A DNA stretch of 64,000 nt from an uncultured Victivallales bacterium (lineage in GTDB: Bacteria; Verrucomicrobiota; Kiritimatiellia; UBA8416; CAYSRM01). Below are positions 1 to 62,080 of the stretch, in pieces (position 1 is the stretch's first letter; each line of letters starts with the position of its first letter). The DNA is taken from NCBI GenBank assembly GCA_964433435.1, contig CAYSRM010000001.1:1941-65940 (forward strand), given 5' to 3'. The notes below the pieces were generated by a model. The model was given only the letters and a program-made list of their open reading frames with translations. It ran no database searches and had not been told where the DNA came from. A program made the position numbers and the translations under genes.

Positions 1-384
1 ACGGGCCGGCCGAGACGATGTGGATGGTTTGATGCTGTTGTGGCCCGGTACTCAGCGATGGTTAACGGCGTGGATATGTGGGCTGTGACGAAACTCGATG
101 TACTGGACGGTCTTGAGAAAATCATGATTTGCACGGGTTACGAATGTGCAGGAGAGAAGTATTCGACGATACCGGCAAACGTCAGGATGCTTGCCAACTG
201 CAAGCCTGTTCTGGAAGAGATGGAAGGCTGGGTTGAATCGACAAGCGGTGTGCAGGAGTATGAGAAGCTTCCCCGACAGGCAAAGGATTATGTTGCCAGG
301 ATCTGCGAGCTTACCGGTGTGCCGATAAGGTTTGTTTCGACGGGTCCGGGCAGGGAGAGCACGATTTCGTTGAGCATTGGTTGA
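1..384 (+). CDS. purA: Adenylosuccinate synthetase, C-terminal fragment; the 5' end lies upstream of the window
   Basis: Frame 1 reads through from position 1 (…[25 protein letters not shown]…[10 protein letters not shown]…), matching the conserved PurA C-terminal region. The listed ORF (40..384) is only the Met-initiated part. Confidence 0.85.
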   Translation, partial: [127 protein letters not shown]

Positions 385-407
385 CATGGGGAAGGGGTCA
401 TTGGCAG

Positions 408-705
408 CGCCCGACGAAGCTACCTGAGCGAAGGCGGGTCATTGGTCATTAGTCATTGGTTATTGGTGGGGAGGGGAGAATATTCAATATCCAACACGGA
501 ATTTCCAATGATGAAGGGGGAGAAGAAGAAAAACTACGAAAGGCTCGAAAGGGCGCGAAAGGGCAGCAGGTTGGAGGACAACCTGCTGTACTGGGGGAGG
601 GAGTGAAGGCGGGAAGGAATATTCAATATCCAGCCACGCCTTCGCTCGGGTAGCTTCGGCGGGCGCGGCACGGAATGTTCAATGATGAAGGAGAAGAAGC
701 GGGGA
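408..705. repeat. Mosaic intergenic repeat element, copy 1 (purA-uppS spacer), with inverted-repeat termini. Modules A-F below
   Basis: Modules: C' (inverted) at 408-435. A = CATTGGT/CATTAGT heptad run (436-470). B = GGGGAGGGG-GAATATTCAATATCC (471-495, again at 617-634). D = CACGGAAT(G)TTCAATGATGAAGGGGGAGAAGAAG (496-535, again at 668-700). E = CGAAAGG direct repeats (536-561). F = 10-bp-stem palindrome CAGCAGGTTG-gagga-CAACCTGCTG (565-589). C = CCACGCCTTCGCTCGGGTAGCTTCGGCGGGCG (634-664). Confidence 0.7.
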
Positions 706-746
706 ATGGGTGTTTTTTTTGAGTTTGCAGGTGTGCAAGTATTTTT

Positions 747-3615: not shown

Positions 3616-5268
3616 TTGGGAGTTATTCAAAGTATTTGGGATGTGCTTATTCTGGTGGTGCTTTTTAGCGCCACGATATTTGTGCATGAGTTTGGACATT
3701 TTCTGGTGGCTAGAAAGCTCGGGATGGTTGTGGACGTGTTTTCCATTGGGTTTGGCCCGGCTATCTGGAAGAAAAAGCACAAGGGAGTCACGTACAAGAT
3801 ATCCATGATTCCACTTGGTGGCTACGTAGCGTTACCCCAGCTTGACCCGGCTGCAATGTCGGGTGTGCAGGGAAAGAACAAGGGCGAGGGCCAGTCTGAG
3901 GGAGGAAACGAAGAGCAGGAGCGTGTGCTTCCTCCTGTTTCGCCCTGGAGCAAGATTCTGGTTTCTTTGGCTGGCTCCATGGGCAACATAGTTTTTGCGA
4001 TTATTTTCGCCTTGATTATATATGCGAATCCCGGTTCGGTCACTGGCTCTGAAACTACCCGCATAGGCAGTGTGGCCACAAACAGCCTGGCTTATCAGAA
4101 GGGTATTCGACCGGGTGACCGGATCAACGCTGTGAATGGAACGGAAGTAAACAGCTGGTATCGTTTCCAGGAGGAGACAGTTCTTGGAGTCGGCAAAGAC
4201 GGTGAGGTGACGGTTACACTGGAATCTGGCGGTTCGGTTCGCGAAGTGCGGGTGCCTGTTGCAACCAATGAACTTGCTGCTGGCGTGATACCAGGGATTG
4301 AAACGGCGAGGCAATGCGCAGTGACTAATGTGGCCGGGGGCGGCAGTGCGGCTCGCGCCGGGCTTAGAGAAGGCGATGTTATAGAGGCTGTGGATGGGAA
4401 TGAGGTGGTAAGCTGCCAACATCTTCAGCATGTCACTGAAGGCAGAGATGGTGAAACTGCGCAGGTTACCGTGAGGAGAGGTGAGGAGGAATTAATTCTT
4501 CATCTTGAGTTGCCGATAGAAGGAACCGCTCCGAAGGGCAAGTGCCTGATAGGAGGAATAATCGGAGGTACATCCGCGGACAAGGCAGGATTGAAGGCCG
4601 GGGATGTAATCATTGAACTTGCCGGGGTGCCCATTGTCAACTGGCGACAGTTTATAGAGAAGGTGAACGAGCATAAAGGTGAGACGCTTCCGATAGTTGT
4701 GCTTCGCGGTGATGATCTGGTTGAGACGGAAGTGACTCCCGAATATGACGAGGAGCGGGAGCGTGCTTTGATCGGAATAGTACTGGGAGTCAGGCCTACC
4801 CTTCCCTGGATGAGATACAGGAGCCCTGCCAGGCAATTGACCAATGATGCATTGGCGATTGTACGGGTGTTGAGCGCCCTGGTTAATCCTTCGAGTTCCG
4901 GCAACGCCGCCAAAGCGATTGGCGGACCTCTTATGATCATCATGACTTTGTGGGCATCAATAAAAATAAGTGTGCTGAATGCTGTAGGGTTTCTCAGGTT
5001 TCTTAACATCAATCTGGCTGTATTGAATCTTCTGCCTATTCCTGTTCTTGACGGGGGGCACATCATGTTTTCTTTGTGGGAAGGGATCACGAAGAAGCGT
5101 ATTAACCCCAGATTCATCAATATACTGGTGAATATCTTTATGGTTCTGTTGCTTGGGCTTTTTCTGCTTATAACCTTCAGGGATATTGAGAGGGGTTTCA
5201 GGAGCGGCAAAGAGGTGAAAAAGGAAGAACGGCAGGCGGATGGGGAGAAGAGTGGGGATGGGGAGTGA
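3616..5268 (+). CDS. rseP: Regulated intramembrane metalloprotease RseP (site-2 protease, M50) with PDZ domains; TTG start
   Basis: HEFGHFLVAR HExxH motif in the first TM helix, PDZ-like segments, C-terminal LDGGH motif. Contains a Gly/Glu-rich low-complexity insertion. Confidence 0.88.
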   Translation: MGVIQSIWDVLILVVLFSATIFVHEFGHFLVARKLGMVVDVFSIGFGPAIWKKKHKGVTYKISMIPLGGYVALPQLDPAAMSGVQGKNKGEGQSEGGNEEQERVLPPVSPWSKILVSLAGSMGNIVFAIIFALIIYANPGSVTGSETTRIGSVATNSLAYQKGIRPGDRINAVNGTEVNSWYRFQEETVLGVGKDGEVTVTLESGGSVREVRVPVATNELAAGVIPGIETARQCAVTNVAGGGSAARAGLREGDVIEAVDGNEVVSCQHLQHVTEGRDGETAQVTVRRGEEELILHLELPIEGTAPKGKCLIGGIIGGTSADKAGLKAGDVIIELAGVPIVNWRQFIEKVNEHKGETLPIVVLRGDDLVETEVTPEYDEERERALIGIVLGVRPTLPWMRYRSPARQLTNDALAIVRVLSALVNPSSSGNAAKAIGGPLMIIMTLWASIKISVLNAVGFLRFLNINLAVLNLLPIPVLDGGHIMFSLWEGITKKRINPRFINILVNIFMVLLLGLFLLITFRDIERGFRSGKEVKKEERQADGEKSGDGE

Positions 5269-5296: not shown

Positions 5297-5378
5297 TATT
5301 GGTTGACAGGGGGAATGTTCAATGATCAAGGGGGAGAAGAAGAAAAGACTACGAAAGGCGCGAAAGGGCGCGAAATTG
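5297..5378. repeat. Mosaic intergenic repeat, copy 2 (rseP-ispG spacer). A-remnant plus D plus E modules
   Basis: ttattggttgacaggggGAATGTTCAATGATCAAGGGGGAGAAGAAGAAAAgaCTACGAAAGGCGCGAAAGGGCGCGAAA. Confidence 0.6.
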
Positions 5379-20671: not shown

Positions 20672-20930
20672 TTGCTCGCTGCGCGAGGGGCATTGGTCAT
20701 TGGTCATTAGTCATTGGTGGGGGAGGGGGGAATATTCAATATCCAACCACGCCTTCGCTCGGGTAGCTTCGGCGGGCGCTGCCACGCCTTCGCTCAGATA
20801 GCTTCGGCGGGCGCAGCACGGAATGGTTAATGATGAAGGGTGGGAAAGAAGAAGATTGTAACCACAGAGAGCACAGAGAAGAGGAAGAAGAGATAGACTG
20901 CGAAAAGTGCGAAAGGGCGCGAAATTGGGG
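20672..20930. repeat. Mosaic intergenic repeat, copy 3 (hisB-hisA spacer). Order is A-B-C-C-D-…-E with a tandem C duplication
   Basis: A at 20688-20718, B at 20719-20746, C at 20747-20778, second C at 20781-20816, D at 20817-20856, E-like at 20898-20927. Confidence 0.7.
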
Positions 20931-24737: not shown

Positions 24738-24747
24738 GCGGCAAGGG

Positions 24748-24813
24748 TGAGAGGGTGGCGCAGGGGGGGCGAGAGGGTGGCGCAGGGGGGGCGGAGAGGG
24801 TGGCAGTACGGGG
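24748..24813. repeat. 22-bp G-rich tandem repeat x3 between convergent comEC and the PAP2 gene
   Basis: GAGAGGGTGGCGCAGGGGGGGC twice exactly, then a degenerate third unit. The comEC ORF terminates at 24737. Confidence 0.7.
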
Positions 24814-24814
24814 G

Positions 24815-25912
24815 CTAATGATGGGGAAAGGCGGGCTGGATTTTTTCTATTAGTCCTTTGTTGTTGATGGTTACAGTTGTTTCTCTCGGGCGTCTTCGAC
24901 CTATGGCAAGGAGTTTGAAGTCCCGGCATATTCTTCTTTTTCTGTCTGAAATGAAGTCGAGAGAGAGGTTATGTTTTTTCTTTATTTCTGCCTGGAGGTC
25001 TTCGGAATCCGGGCTGATTATGATGGTTGTAAAGCTATCCCTTGTGTTTTTAAGGGCCAAGTCCAGTTGCTGCAATTTGTTTATGTTAGCTGGAGCTTTT
25101 ATGCAAGGTGCGAAGATGAGTCTGTAGTTGTGGTGCTCGGTTCGGTCTGAGGATATGGTTTTGCCTTCGATCGTGACCGCGCTGAAGGAGGGGCATTTAT
25201 TTCCTTTTTTCAAACCTGTGCTGTTGTCGGGCCAGAATCCCTGTTGCATTGCATATGGAAGCCGTTTGCGGATTGCATCTTCTATTGAGAAGTAGTGTGT
25301 TTTGATCAGGCTGGTCAGGCCGTAGCCCGTGAGCATGCCCCCGTAGACATCGGATATCCAGTGCGCTTCGTGGACCACCCGCGACAATCCTGTAAGGGTC
25401 GCAACAGCATAGAAGAGCCAGTGCATTCTGGGATAGAGTCCAGCCAGAAAGGTGGCGAAAACAAAAGCGAATGTTGTATGTCCTGAAGGGAAGCAGACAG
25501 AATGGCCCTGTTCCCACCCTGACAGGAACGGCACAAAGGTCATCTCGTAACCGCAACGGGAGGGCCTTATTCTGCCGACCGTGTGTTGTAAAATCCAGAC
25601 CAGAAAATATGAAGCTGCCAGCGAAAGAACCAGCCAGATGATGTATTTTCTTTTGTCCGGGTCGTATTCCCATAGAAACATGCATATCAGAAGAGCGCTG
25701 AAAACCACCCCGAATTGTTCAAAGAACACCCAGAAAGTGCTGTCGGTCAGGTAGTAGAAAAACATGTATGCAAAGTTTTTTTTCGGATTACGGATATGTC
25801 GGACCTGGACCATTGTTTCGGGCCCTACCTCCAACGTCTCGGTGGCCACTGTCTTGGAGTCTTTATGAAGACGCAGGCTTACGCTGTCGCCCGCTTCTTT
25901 CTTGTATTCCAT
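24815..25912 (-). CDS. PAP2 (acid phosphatase/phosphoesterase) membrane domain fused to a C-terminal peroxiredoxin/Bcp-like thioredoxin-fold domain
   Basis: PAP2 motifs K..GRIRPSR, PSGHT and SRVVHEAHWISDV. C-terminal approximately 140 aa align to a PrxQ/Bcp scaffold (…RLIFAPCIKAP…ISPDS…KKKHNLSLDFISD…CRDF.LLA…TTVTINNKGLI), but the canonical T-x-x-C peroxidatic motif is altered. Confidence 0.7.
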   Translation of the reverse strand: MEYKKEAGDSVSLRLHKDSKTVATETLEVGPETMVQVRHIRNPKKNFAYMFFYYLTDSTFWVFFEQFGVVFSALLICMFLWEYDPDKRKYIIWLVLSLAASYFLVWILQHTVGRIRPSRCGYEMTFVPFLSGWEQGHSVCFPSGHTTFAFVFATFLAGLYPRMHWLFYAVATLTGLSRVVHEAHWISDVYGGMLTGYGLTSLIKTHYFSIEDAIRKRLPYAMQQGFWPDNSTGLKKGNKCPSFSAVTIEGKTISSDRTEHHNYRLIFAPCIKAPANINKLQQLDLALKNTRDSFTTIIISPDSEDLQAEIKKKHNLSLDFISDRKRRICRDFKLLAIGRRRPRETTVTINNKGLIEKIQPAFPHH

Positions 25913-28915: not shown

Positions 28916-28927
28916 TTCCGGAGGAAT

Positions 28928-28980
28928 GCGGGTGTAGCTTAGTGGTAAAGCTTCCGCCTTCGTCCGGAGGCTACGGCGAG
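28928..28980 (+). pseudogene. 5' fragment of a tRNA-Gly-like gene. It has the acceptor 5' strand and D-arm but no T-arm or 3' acceptor strand
   Basis: The first 25 nt (gcgggtgtagcttagtggtaaagct) are identical to the intact tRNA-Gly 130 nt downstream. The following arm is degenerate and no ttcgattcc or cacccgc follows. Confidence 0.6.
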
Positions 28981-29057
28981 ACAAGCCAGCCAAAGCTCTC
29001 GCGTATGTGATTAATGATCAGGGTCTCCGGGTGTGTATGTGTGAGGTTTATATGGTT

Positions 29058-29131
29058 GCGGGTGTAGCTTAGTGGTAAAGCTCCAGCCTTCCAAGCTGGC
29101 TACGCGGGTTCGATTCCCGCCACCCGCTCCA
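29058..29131 (+). tRNA. tRNA-Gly (anticodon TCC), CCA encoded
   Basis: Manual fold: acceptor gcgggtg/cacccgc, D-arm gctt-agtggta-aagc, anticodon stem ccagc/gctgg with loop cttccaa, T-arm gcggg-ttcgatt-cccgc, discriminator t, cca. Confidence 0.9.
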
Positions 29132-37974: not shown

Positions 37975-38185
37975 GGGAGCCTTTGGGTGGGTCGCTGGTA
38001 ATTTGCGCCTGGCGGCGCGTCATTTGTCCCGAGGCGCTTGAGCGCTCGGGAAGTTATTGGTTGTCAGGAAGTCTGAAGAGGGGAAAAGAATTTGGGCTGG
38101 ATTAACAGGATTTAGTGATGTGGGAGGGGTGAACAAGAATGCGTGTTGTCAGTTTTGACAGTAGAATAGAAGAGAAGAGGAGACG

Positions 38186-45462: not shown

Positions 45463-45514
45463 ACGATGACGGGCGATCCCGACTCTCTTCGAGGTCGGGA
45501 TCGCCCGTCATCGT
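45463..45514. repeat. Near-perfect 50-bp palindrome (21-bp perfect arms plus inner ctc/gag)
   Basis: ACGATGACGGGCGATCCCGAC tctcttcgag GTCGGGATCGCCCGTCATCGT; read directly. Confidence 0.9.
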
Positions 45515-46649: not shown

Positions 46650-47513
46650 TTGTTTATGATGCGTCTCTCTGAAGTTCGGAATACGCTTGAGCGCATAGAT
46701 TTTCATCCGAGCCGGAGGCTCGGGCAGAATTTTCTTATAGACAGCAATATCCTGGGCATATTGATAGATGTTCTGGATGTTCACGGGGATGAAAGCATAC
46801 TGGAGATAGGTCCGGGGCTTGGCGCTGCCACTGAGCGGCTTCTCTGCTGCGGCGGCAGTGTTACGGCTGTGGAAAAGGACCGGACTCTGTATCGTTTTCT
46901 CAGGGACCGTTTTGCGGGCGCTGCTGATTTTGAGCTTATCAATGCAGACGTACTGGACCTTGATCTTGAGAACCTGTTTAATGAAAGGCGGATTCAGAAG
47001 GTTTTCTCCAATCTCCCCTATTCTGTCGGATCCCGTATTCTGGTGGAACTTGTTAAGCTTGACAGCCCGCCTGTGGATTTGGTTGTGACCGTTCAGAGCG
47101 AGGTTGCGCAGAGGATGGCCGCCGGCCCTTCACAAAAAGGGAGATCTGTTCTGGGGATCCTGGTACAGGCGGTGTATGATGTCAAACTTGTCAGGAAAAT
47201 CAGTCCGTCTTGTTTCTGGCCTGTGCCGGAAGTTGAATCCGCAATAGTGCATCTGACCCGTCGCCCTGACTTATTTACAGGAACGGCAGCGAAAAGCGAT
47301 TTCATTAAGTTCAGTAAGATGATATTCCGGCACAGGCGCAAACAGATGGCAGCGATACTGCGTCGTTGTCTTCCTGGCAGCGGGAAGTACGCGGAGCATA
47401 TTGAACAGATACTTAAGGTGTGCAGCATCAGCCCGCAATCTCGTCCGGGTGATTTGTCGCTTGAGCAATGGATACTCTTGACATCGCAGCTCAAGGATGA
47501 TGAATCTTTGTGA
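46650..47513 (+). CDS. rsmA: 16S rRNA (adenine1518/1519-N6)-dimethyltransferase
   Basis: …RLGQNFLID…, SAM motif …LEIGPGLGAAT…, …FSNLPYS…. Confidence 0.9.
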   Translation: MFMMRLSEVRNTLERIDFHPSRRLGQNFLIDSNILGILIDVLDVHGDESILEIGPGLGAATERLLCCGGSVTAVEKDRTLYRFLRDRFAGAADFELINADVLDLDLENLFNERRIQKVFSNLPYSVGSRILVELVKLDSPPVDLVVTVQSEVAQRMAAGPSQKGRSVLGILVQAVYDVKLVRKISPSCFWPVPEVESAIVHLTRRPDLFTGTAAKSDFIKFSKMIFRHRRKQMAAILRRCLPGSGKYAEHIEQILKVCSISPQSRPGDLSLEQWILLTSQLKDDESL

Positions 47514-47520
47514 AGGCGGC

Positions 47521-47618
47521 GGTGAAACGGGCGTGAAAGGAATGTGGGACGTGGAACGCGGGAGCGTTGCAATCTACGGGAAGGGGGGGCAGCAGGTTGG
47601 AGAACAACCTGCTGTACT
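47521..47618. repeat. Mosaic intergenic repeat, copy 4 (rsmA-mutS spacer). Degenerate E plus the F palindrome
   Basis: …gaaacgggcgtgaaagg…ctacgggaaggggggg then CAGCAGGTTG-gagaa-CAACCTGCTG (47590-47614), 10/10 bp identical stem to 565-589. Confidence 0.55.
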
Positions 47619-47794
47619 TGTAGACAATGTTTTTGCGTCCTTCTTAGCGCACTCGGGCTCTTGAGGCGGTGATTCAGGGAAGGAAACAACAGGTTAAAGG
47701 GACAACTTTAAATCAGGACTTGACCGAGACAGCGTTAACTCCGCCATATGCTGTCCGGGTTGATAACGTGTAAGGTTCAGAGAGGGAACGGTAA

Positions 47795-52982: not shown

Positions 52983-53172
52983 TTTGATCGTCGTCTGCGA
53001 AGATCGGGACAATGATGATGGACAATGTATCCAAAAGAGGGAAGGAAAGACTGTGCCGGCGCGTGATTTGTAGTTCTGGCTGGATTTAACCTGGCTGATT
53101 CATTTACATTAATGAACAAGACCCCATCCGAAAAGGGTCGGAGAGCAATAAGACCGGCAATGCCGGAGAAAA

Positions 53173-53340
53173 GCGCGCTCGCACACTTGCTTGTACGCGC
53201 GTATTAGCGAGCGGTTAAGTAAGTCGGGTAAGGGTATACGGTTAGGGGTGGCGGTTAAGAATTGCGTTTAAGTGTCTGAATCCGTACACTTAACCGCTCC
53301 TCTTACTGGGATACACTTACCCGACCTGCTTACCCGGTCT
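53173..53340. other. Candidate structured non-coding element (nested long inverted repeats) in an ORF-free region of about 680 bp
   Basis: No ORF of 60 aa or more in any frame across 52885-53443. Outer arms cggttaagtaagtcgggtaagg (53212-53233) and acttacccgacctgcttacccgg (53315-53337). Inner 9-bp perfect stem ggcggttaag / cttaaccgc (53250-53259 / 53290-53298). Confidence 0.45.
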
Positions 53341-53524
53341 GGGGTGTGCGAGTATGGATAAGAAAACATGCGGCATTGCAACGGTCTGTTTTGAGACACC
53401 TTTTCGGATAGGGACTAACTAAAGATAACACGGGTTATACAGATTGCATGGATGGGGAAGATGTGTCTTCAGTAAATCAGTTGTTTTCAGACAACAATTT
53501 CAGATTGAAAAAGAGGGTTTAATT

Positions 53525-60875: not shown

Positions 60876-61339
60876 AAGTTAACAACTCCATTTTTTTCGT
60901 ATTTTGAAAGTCTGGAATATCCTCTTTAATGTTGGAGTATGCAAGGAAAAGTTTATGCGTCGGGCAATTGGTTTGGATGCTTGCCGCAGCGTGTAAGATT
61001 GAGCAGACTGCCGCACCTGATGCAGGTCCGCTTGAGGCGGGAAAGGCTGCTAGCCCGCATATCTCACAGAATTCCTGCTGCGAGCGCGGATAGCGCCACT
61101 GCGACGGCACGAATTGACAAAATGCCAGATTGCAGTATGTCTATACGGCTGCTCCGGCGTTTCACCAATTGGCGCCCCCGCGGCAGCGCTTTCCACGCTC
61201 TTCCGCCGGATGGCGGACAGGCTACTACGAAATCCTGTGAATGGTTGATCTTGCGGCATCGTTGTCGCGATCATTGTCTTGATTTTCGTCGACAAGGACC
61301 GGGATAAAGATTGGGACGAAGATAGGGGAGCGGTCCGTG

Positions 61340-61939: not shown

Positions 61940-62080
61940 GATGATAAAATAGGAGGATGCTGGTTTCTGGATGCTGGTTTCTGGATGCTGGGGGCTCAGA
62001 TCTTCTGCGCAGAACTTACGAGTTCAGATTCTGATCGCAATCGACTTTCTGCGCAAAACCGATTACGATTACGAACTGCG
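61940..62080. repeat. Cluster of short direct repeats in the divergent sulfotransferase / vanZ-like intergenic region
   Basis: GATGCTGGTTTCTG x2 (+ partial), TTCTGCGCA(G/A)AAC x2, GATTACGA x2 read directly. Confidence 0.6.

Follow-up and report, generated by a model that had tools for sequence, protein, structure and literature searches.

A modular family of short repeats centred on a GC-rich hairpin in spacers between housekeeping genes of an uncultured Victivallales bacterium

Why do several spacers between ordinary housekeeping genes of an uncultured Victivallales bacterium carry the same short blocks of sequence? We addressed this question in a 64,000-nucleotide stretch of contig CAYSRM010000001.1 (positions 1,941 to 65,940 of the forward strand; hereafter the window), which has a G+C content of 50.6% and whose plus strand carries purA'-uppS-cdsA-dxr-rseP-ispG, a his operon and rsmA-mutS. 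The spacers concerned are flanked by purA/uppS, rseP/ispG, hisB/hisA and rsmA/mutS, as identified with NCBIfam. The original prediction, made from the sequence alone, had distinguished six modules, A to F, in these spacers and had proposed a dispersed, modular, non-coding repeat family between co-directional genes. Our analysis bears this out: the spacers contain an undescribed family of short modular repeats organized around a GC-rich hairpin, module C. The description given in that prediction proved largely accurate, and its interpretation is supported in part.

All six modules were present where they had been placed and recurred far above the expectation from dinucleotide-preserving shuffles, which served as the chance baseline for module counts. 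Module C, searched as a 30-mer with up to three mismatches, gave four matches against 0.00 expected (407-436 on the minus strand; 637, 20750 and 20785 on the plus strand), and a covariance model run over the 64 kb recovered these four together with one divergent copy at 28951-28982 and nothing further. Four copies of D (498, 672, 5312 and 20820) and two of F (562 and 47588) were found, each again against 0.00 expected. Three genuine copies of B (477, 616 and 20729) and three of E (546, 5361 and 20910) were recognized, and the heptads of A formed two arrays, at 440-467 and 20691-20718, in both Tandem Repeats Finder (TRF) and a pattern search. Composite copies were exclusively intergenic, as were the single C copies (5/5 in the 64 kb). 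The B-C-D unit at 616-706 was 92-96% identical over 68-76 nt to non-orthologous units in five further loci of related MAGs (metagenome-assembled genomes; L002, L005, L009, L012 and L013).

The modules had been thought to combine freely as a mosaic. Instead, we found a fixed order on one strand, A(CATTGGT)n-B-C(n)-D-(filler)-E, in the window and in every related locus, within which single modules were absent or reiterated; the orientation of the composites was that of the flanking genes. D and E proved to be one contiguous block, with 506-560 and 5320-5375 being 94.6% identical. C is a 35-nt unit present in zero to four tandem copies across the window and its relatives, with 0, 1 or 2 copies between B and D in the window. 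A and D enclose B and a variable tandem C array (0-4 units, period 35 nt), with a purine-rich tail and E next. B-C(n)-D was seen with n=0, 1 and 2, and relatives carried C3 (then D) and C4 arrays without B. The site without a C unit, ATATCCAACACGGAAT (487-502), keeps CACG once, and filled sites have one CACG per C unit. Of the four spacers, the fourth, rsmA/mutS, has no module but F in common with the other three; it also holds a GTGGGAC heptad motif, which was seen again at two loci of a related MAG.

Related heptads make up A, B and D: the reverse complement of A is AATGACC, B contains AATATTC AATATCC, and D contains AATGTTC AATGATG. A can therefore pair with the AATGNTC heptads in D and, given this common construction, is an imperfect inverted repeat of D, so that the terminal modules are related AATnnnn heptads that are reverse-complementary to each other. 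The complementarity between A and D extends over 8-12 bp, and the predicted fold of the hisB/hisA spacer holds a 12-bp A:D helix. The motif at the left end of the purA/uppS copy precedes D again at 5298-5315 (94%), with a further occurrence near 38054-38070. It includes the final codons of purA (CATTGGTTGA), and the purA C-terminus differs in locus L029, which is without the element.

We compared the same spacers in three related MAGs, CAZIXB (loci L028 and L003), CAYTRK (L029) and CAYYVQ. Identities are 85-86% for Dxr (CAZIXB and CAYTRK), 80-82% for RsmA (CAZIXB and CAYYVQ) and, at the nucleotide level, approximately 78-83% for the his region of CAZIXB. The family is polymorphic at the same sites: the orthologous spacers contained different module subsets and C-unit numbers. 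The purA/uppS spacer of L028 is 222 nt long and consists of A1, a partial C, C3 and D, followed by the same conserved tail before uppS as in the window; its C copies are direct, and no inverted arm is present. In L029 this spacer is approximately 80 nt (11 nt by gene call) and retains only a decayed C remnant. The rseP/ispG spacer of L028 carries a truncated inverted C flanked by CATTGG, then B, C2, D' and E', and that of L029 is without A-E modules, with another dispersed repeat in their place. The hisB/hisA spacer of L003 has A3, a partial C and C4, without B, D or E. The C-unit counts in the window versus the relative were thus 1 vs 3 at purA/uppS, 0 vs 2 at rseP/ispG and 2 vs 4 at hisB/hisA. 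Between genomes the modules were approximately 92-96% identical, compared with approximately 78-83% for the adjacent housekeeping genes at the nucleotide level.

The rsmA/mutS spacer differs in kind. It is 281 nt long in the window versus 14 nt in L061, L062 and L063, and RsmA has 284-287 amino acids in the window versus 296 in these three loci. The difference is a gain or replacement particular to the window's lineage, which remodelled the rsmA 3' end. No target-site duplication was recognizable in comparison with the empty sites in L061 and L063, and the event resembles a replacement. Collectively, the comparison with relatives shows remodelling of the arrays in place together with one lineage-specific gain, at rsmA/mutS. 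As a separate observation, the rsmA 3' end is remodelled at 47490-47513 (compared with L061 10860-10891 and L063 2626-2657), with a new stop at the left edge of the inserted spacer.

Several contigs end within the repeats, as expected of multi-copy sequences. A Logan contig of the same organism (L060) ends exactly at the F hairpin, contigs L001, L002, L013, L014 and L060 end in arrays, and several MAG contigs stop inside C arrays.

Module C itself had been described as a block with a cUUCGg-type minihairpin. Covariation instead backs a two-stem hairpin, in which an outer CGCC/GGCG stem, extended by one or two pairs, is followed by a 3x3 internal loop (UUC/UWC), a 3-bp inner stem (GCU...AGC) and a loop of 4-7 nt. 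When the inner triplets were left free in a relaxed pattern, 22 matches other than GCU/AGC were obtained, half of which (11/22) pair at all three positions, compared with approximately 5% expected; the pair types include GCC/GGC, GUU/AAC, GUC/GAC, GCG/CGC and a few others. At the unselected outer pair of columns 3-33, C-G occurs in 22 sequences and U-A in 8, and no shuffle reached the observed covariation score. Some variants have GTAG within the loop or the inner stem (GGGTAGC) and nowhere else, others carry GATAGC or TTTAGC instead, and no conserved GTAG or CGTC tetranucleotide was found at the palindrome end among the C variants.

The C core extends beyond this lineage. Among 185,579 species genomes scanned, seven contained it: two Kiritimatiellae/Kiritimatiellaeota MAGs (one with many copies), two Victivallales MAGs, one Verrucomicrobiota MAG, one Desulfobulbaceae MAG and one unclassified MAG. 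It was also present in 29 metagenome contigs, including soil, mostly with CTTC...GGACAAGTCGC flanks. Outside Victivallales the flanks differ from those in the window, and a C-D junction, sought in the metagenome scan, gave no matches. In the Kiritimatiellae MAG JAFGHX, where the C copies are intergenic, with 7 co-oriented and 5 anti-oriented to genes, the core has two settings: between CTTGCTCGAGAAC 13-mers, and at the centre of an element of approximately 165 nt with terminal inverted repeats of 16-19 bp (GAGCCTGTCGAAAAAG ... CTTTTTCGACAGGCTC). This element is MITE-like (MITEs are miniature inverted-repeat transposable elements), has at least five copies with unrelated flanks (L004 at about 4060-4225, L007, L008, L019 and L027) and no Rfam match.

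The C hairpin (CGCC-UUC-stem-loop-UWC-GGCG) could be a cross-phylum recognition element of a conserved trans-acting protein, common to Lentisphaerota, Kiritimatiellota, Verrucomicrobiota and soil bacteria and residing in lineage-specific carriers, a REP-like arrangement of unusually broad reach (REP, repetitive extragenic palindrome). The carriers could be the BOX-like composite here and the 13-mer arrays and 165-nt element with terminal inverted repeats in Kiritimatiellae, and the protein could be a domesticated single-stranded-DNA transposase or an RNA-processing factor. We regard this extension as speculative and rather improbable.

The divergent C copy lies in the segment 28927-28990, which contains a duplicated 5' half of tRNA-Gly(UCC), 130 nt upstream of the intact gene at 29058-29131. 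This half-copy matches the gene without differences as far as the anticodon loop and then runs into the C-family hairpin, which has soil-type flanks (GCTTC CGCC UUC GUC CGGA GGC UAC GGCG AGACAAG). These flanks, GCTTC...GACAAG, match a subfamily of soil metagenomes. The half-copy was not called as a tRNA by ARAGORN or by Rfam, where it scored 12.9 bits against a gathering score of 29. Recombination may have produced the fusion, or it may point to an origin of the hairpin related to tRNA; the pseudo-tRNA fusion (28927-28982) hints at a possible evolutionary link of C with the anticodon/variable region of tRNA-Gly. The idea that C is itself a tRNA-like element was rejected, as the C arrays gave no match to the tRNA model and the pseudo-tRNA copy stayed below the gathering score.

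Searches for known relatives of the family were negative. Rfam was run on the window spacer, the pseudo-tRNA region, the Kiritimatiellae element and 11 loci: at the gathering threshold only tRNAs were reported, and at permissive E-values the best sub-threshold matches (E 0.1-0.95) were to implausible families; the family matches no Rfam family. A full-text literature search with four module strings returned only unrelated primer matches to an 11-mer, and no paper on small interspersed repeats in Lentisphaerota or Kiritimatiellota was found. The predicted lack of a transposase nearby also stood: a phmmer search with E. coli RayT against six-frame open reading frames (ORFs) of the window and 58 loci gave no match, within the limited sensitivity of a single-sequence query, and a Pfam scan of eight hairpin-flanked ORFs revealed ordinary genes and no transposase.

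The roughly 10 non-orthologous Victivallales sites, including that in L061, were all intergenic and co-oriented with the flanking genes (chance approximately 0.002, two-sided). No sigma-70-like promoter or intrinsic terminator was predicted in 300-800. F is a strong isolated hairpin (z -5.8), with a stem of 11 bp rather than the 10 bp first proposed. The spacers show an excess of G over C that tracks the plus strand, even between minus-strand genes. The notion that spacers poor in the base C protect against Rho was dropped, as this skew is not transcription-specific. Whole spacers as structured RNAs were likewise rejected, since rseP/ispG and hisB/hisA resemble shuffles and only the inverted C pair sets purA/uppS apart. 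A B:D RNA helix is plausible in one copy and was discarded because the B variants GAATATCC and AAATATCC break the pairing without compensation, as judged by eye.

What kind of element, then, is this? That the similarities are due to chance or to assembly artefacts, a concern raised only by the fact that the sources are MAGs, is already refuted and has practically no probability left, as shuffles give zero expected matches and the same modules occur in independent assemblies of different projects, including a Logan assembly. The original prediction had taken 408-664 as a non-autonomous element of approximately 260 bp with inverted C copies as its ends, which would make it a classical MITE moved by a DDE transposase. 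The inverted copy at the left end is real: 404-436 and 637-669 are 91% complementary, and this pair alone gives the purA/uppS spacer a very stable fold (z -7.4). The JAFGHX element, which carries the same core, is different and truly MITE-like. The arms do not, however, terminate a repeated unit in the window. The arrangement occurs once, its interior is a concatenation of the independent modules A-B-D-E-F and then B-C-D, and its ends are not constant; the orthologous purA/uppS spacer of L028 is without the inverted arm. The bases adjoining the arms, TGGCA / GGCA, where target-site duplications were sought, are the 35-nt unit's own linker, and no transposase was found in the window and loci searched. 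The MITE interpretation of the 260-bp unit is largely refuted, and we consider it highly improbable.

Two other explanations were considered. C could be a REP propagated as single-stranded DNA by an HUH/Y1 enzyme, a REP-associated tyrosine transposase (RAYT) whose single-copy gene lies elsewhere in the genome, with the remaining modules as accessory motifs like those of bacterial interspersed mosaic elements (BIMEs). C is indeed a covarying, GC-rich imperfect palindrome of 30-35 nt that is strictly intergenic, clustered and occasionally inverted (one inverted pair 200 nt apart and one truncated inverted C in L028, all other arrays being direct tandems of period 35); its orientation bias would suit replication-coupled insertion, GTAG-tagged REPs have been reported in the Planctomycetes-Verrucomicrobia-Chlamydiae (PVC) superphylum and CGTC-type REPs are known without an associated transposase (PMC3733652). 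On the other hand, no RAYT was found in approximately 0.5 Mb of sequence, GTAG occurs only in some loop variants in place of a conserved terminal GTAG or CGTC tag, the units are mostly direct tandems rather than inverted REP doublets (REPINs), and the core spans phyla although REP families are normally lineage-specific, which makes this origin unlikely in our view. Alternatively, the modules may be cis-acting RNA or DNA elements selected by the host (operon punctuation, mRNA processing or protein binding) that are not currently mobile and whose similarity is kept by selection and gene conversion. Sites largely common to relatives, modules more conserved than adjacent genes, an orientation strictly that of the genes and a covarying hairpin would all fit. 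Nevertheless, the modules present at any one spacer vary strongly or are missing in close relatives, which speaks against an essential function tied to that site, and the spacers are overall not unusually structured; we see this explanation as possible but doubtful.

We favour, with a probability of roughly 60%, a family of small non-coding modular interspersed repeats whose architecture is closest to pneumococcal BOX and whose hairpin is closest to REP/BIME, which is remodelled in place, is probably co-transcribed and would act at the RNA level. Replication slippage, together with recombination or gene conversion among the copies, would remodel the arrays. New sites would arise rarely through a trans-acting activity, the likeliest candidate being a single-strand HUH/Y1 (RAYT-like) enzyme that recognizes the C hairpin. 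The copies are probably co-transcribed with their operons, because they lie inside co-directional gene strings without promoter or terminator signals, and the C and F hairpins may then block 3' exonucleases or be sites of processing, and in this way adjust how strongly adjacent genes are expressed relative to each other, a role modelled on REP/BIME, for which it is documented, and on BOX, for which it is proposed.

Several observations weigh against this interpretation. The orientation bias is inseparable from a replication-strand bias, because the G-richness of the spacers tracks the plus strand and not transcription, and C alone shows no such bias in the Kiritimatiellae MAG. Folded as complete RNAs, the spacers rseP/ispG (z +1.25) and hisB/hisA (z +1.4) are not more stable than their shuffles, and B:D pairing is unsupported. 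No mobilizing enzyme emerged from the phmmer and Pfam searches, neither a target-site duplication nor a clean empty site was found, the rsmA/mutS event having the look of a replacement, and, as most sites are common to relatives, transposition, if any, must be rare.

Table 1 Repeat modules and composite copies in the window
Feature	Position	Strand	Details
purA/uppS spacer	385-746 (362 nt)	+	inverted C, A4, B, D, E, F, then second B-C-D
Left-end motif CATTGGTTGACATGGGG	376-393	+	spans final purA codons and TGA stop (382-384)
Module C, inverted, 35-nt unit with linker	402-441	-	covariance model 36 bits, E 2e-5
Module A, 4.4 copies of heptad GGTCATT / CATTGGT	437-467	+	TRF
Module B copy 1 (AGAATATTCAATATCCA)	477-493	+	joined straight to D; site without C unit
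D-E block (GGAATTTCCAATGATGAAGGGGGAGAAGAAG..., then CGAAAGGG 10-mer ~3 times)	495-560	+	TRF period 10
Module F, stem 11 bp, loop 5 nt	561-592	+	-20.2 kcal/mol, z -5.8; second copy 47587-47618
Canonical B-C-D unit: B 616-632, C 633-669, D 669-706	616-706	+	C scores 47.8 bits
rseP/ispG minimal copy: left motif, D, E; without B or C	5298-5378	+	identity to 506-560 block
hisB/hisA copy: A x4 20691-20718, B 20729-20745, C x2 20746-20815, D 20817-20854	20691-20927	+	
hisB/hisA copy, 3' part: unique purine-rich filler, then E 20895-20927		+	C array: TRF period 35, 1.9 copies
rsmA/mutS lineage-specific insertion/replacement	47504-47775	+	GTGGGAC-type heptad motif 47541-47560; F copy 2 47587-47618
Divergent C-family hairpin (CGCC UUC GUC CGGA GGC UAC GGCG)	28951-28982	+	covariance model 25.7 bits, E 0.003

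Other repeats accompany the family. The bamA/ompH spacer at 37975-38185 contains the related short motifs TATTGGTTGTCAGG and GGATTAACAGGAT, the latter also present in L009 and L012, and in L061 (1340-1480) the same spacer carries A, a G-rich linker, a palindrome GGAACGGTCCCGTTCC replacing B, and then D. Another dispersed repeat (agcccgcatatctcacag ... ccgccggatggcggacagg) was observed at 61050-61240 of the window, at L005 922-1009 and at L029 9060-9110; in L029 it fills the rseP/ispG spacer, where the window and L028 have A-E modules. An intergenic element of approximately 300 nt (53119-53424), upstream of an ORF at 53444, shares 89% identity with L009 3123-3503 and, over part of its length, resembles L009 7451-7590 as well; it has no Rfam match at the gathering threshold and is a putative dispersed repeat of a second kind or a structured RNA that lacks annotation. 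A tandem repeat of a G-rich 22-nt unit (GGGCGAGAGGGTGGCGCAGGGG, approximately 2.7 copies) lies at 24745-24815 in a convergent spacer of 77 nt that is 65% G on the plus strand. Two divergent spacers contain an inverted repeat of 21 perfectly paired bp around a 10-nt loop (ACGATGACGGGCGATCCCGAC ..., 45463-45514) and a perfect 14-nt tandem repeat (GGATGCTGGTTTCT, 2.6 copies, 61955-61991), respectively.

Small interspersed repeats have been characterized mainly in Proteobacteria, Firmicutes and cyanobacteria, and Lentisphaerota and Kiritimatiellota are known mostly from MAGs. The family described here provides a worked example with a clear module grammar, orthologous sites that are filled, remodelled or empty, and a covarying core common to PVC lineages. 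Such repeats break MAG assemblies, several contigs ending in them, and can change the ends of genes, as seen here for the C-termini of purA and rsmA; they might also be used to type strains and to track down the enzyme or host factor by which the hairpin is recognized. The family is an incremental addition to a known class and involves no new principle; what is moderately new is that the family had not been described, that its phylum has received little study and that its core is unusually widespread.

In comparison with known systems, the family belongs to the general class of small interspersed mosaic repeats, BOX/BIME-like, and is a member of no named family; it is filed under the general class only, because it fails the defining tests of a MITE and, as regards REP-RAYT systems, has no conserved terminal tag, shows few inverted C copies and gave no RAYT match in the sequence searched. 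MITEs such as Correia/CREE of Neisseria, RUP and Nezha are likewise small dispersed elements without coding capacity that may extend into the ends of genes, be transcribed along with them and fold into long hairpins, and the Kiritimatiellae element with the same C core does have terminal inverted repeats of 16-19 bp. By contrast, the window has no repeated full-length unit with defined inverted-repeat ends and no target-site duplication, and no cognate insertion sequence was found in the sequence searched.

In REP/BIME systems, hairpins rich in GC form clusters with accessory motifs within spacers that are co-transcribed (PMC2817692, PMC3116915, PMC3733652). The statement that the organization here is unlike theirs was too strong, as operon spacers in which an imperfect GC-rich hairpin is grouped with other short motifs follow REP/BIME logic. 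In common with REP, BIME and REPIN sequences are a GC-rich imperfect palindrome of 30-35 nt, extragenic co-transcribed spacers, mosaics with short motifs and occasional inverted pairs (PMC2817692, PMC3116915, PMC3733652); C also has the general properties of a REP, a GC-rich imperfect palindrome of 20-40 nt that is extragenic and multi-copy (5 copies in 64 kb). The Victivallales hairpins differ in being mostly direct tandems, not alternating or inverted, in having no GTAG or CGTC terminal tag and no RAYT found, and in a core common to several phyla, REP classes being usually lineage-specific.

BOX elements of S. pneumoniae, boxA-boxB(n)-boxC, have partly complementary terminal modules around a central module of variable tandem number, so that locus length varies, and target-site duplications and a transposase are hard to demonstrate for them (PMC3049150). 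The comparison is based on this layout of terminal modules and a variable tandem core (PMC3049150, PMC2817692), which is also found here, with fixed terminal modules enclosing a variable core that includes zero units. Both are composite intergenic repeats with fixed, partly complementary termini; in both, the central module folds on itself and is tandemly reiterated or absent, its number varying per locus (between strains for BOX, between relatives here), and both are without a transposase of their own and with target-site duplications that are hard to demonstrate. The likeness is one of architecture, that of an analogue rather than a member, as the sequences show no obvious similarity, although no search with a BOX profile was made. 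BOX is found in Firmicutes, whereas the Victivallales family resides in Lentisphaerota/PVC, has a GC-rich 35-nt hairpin as its central unit in a genome of 50% GC, and adds further modules (the A heptad array, E and F) and a strict co-orientation with genes.

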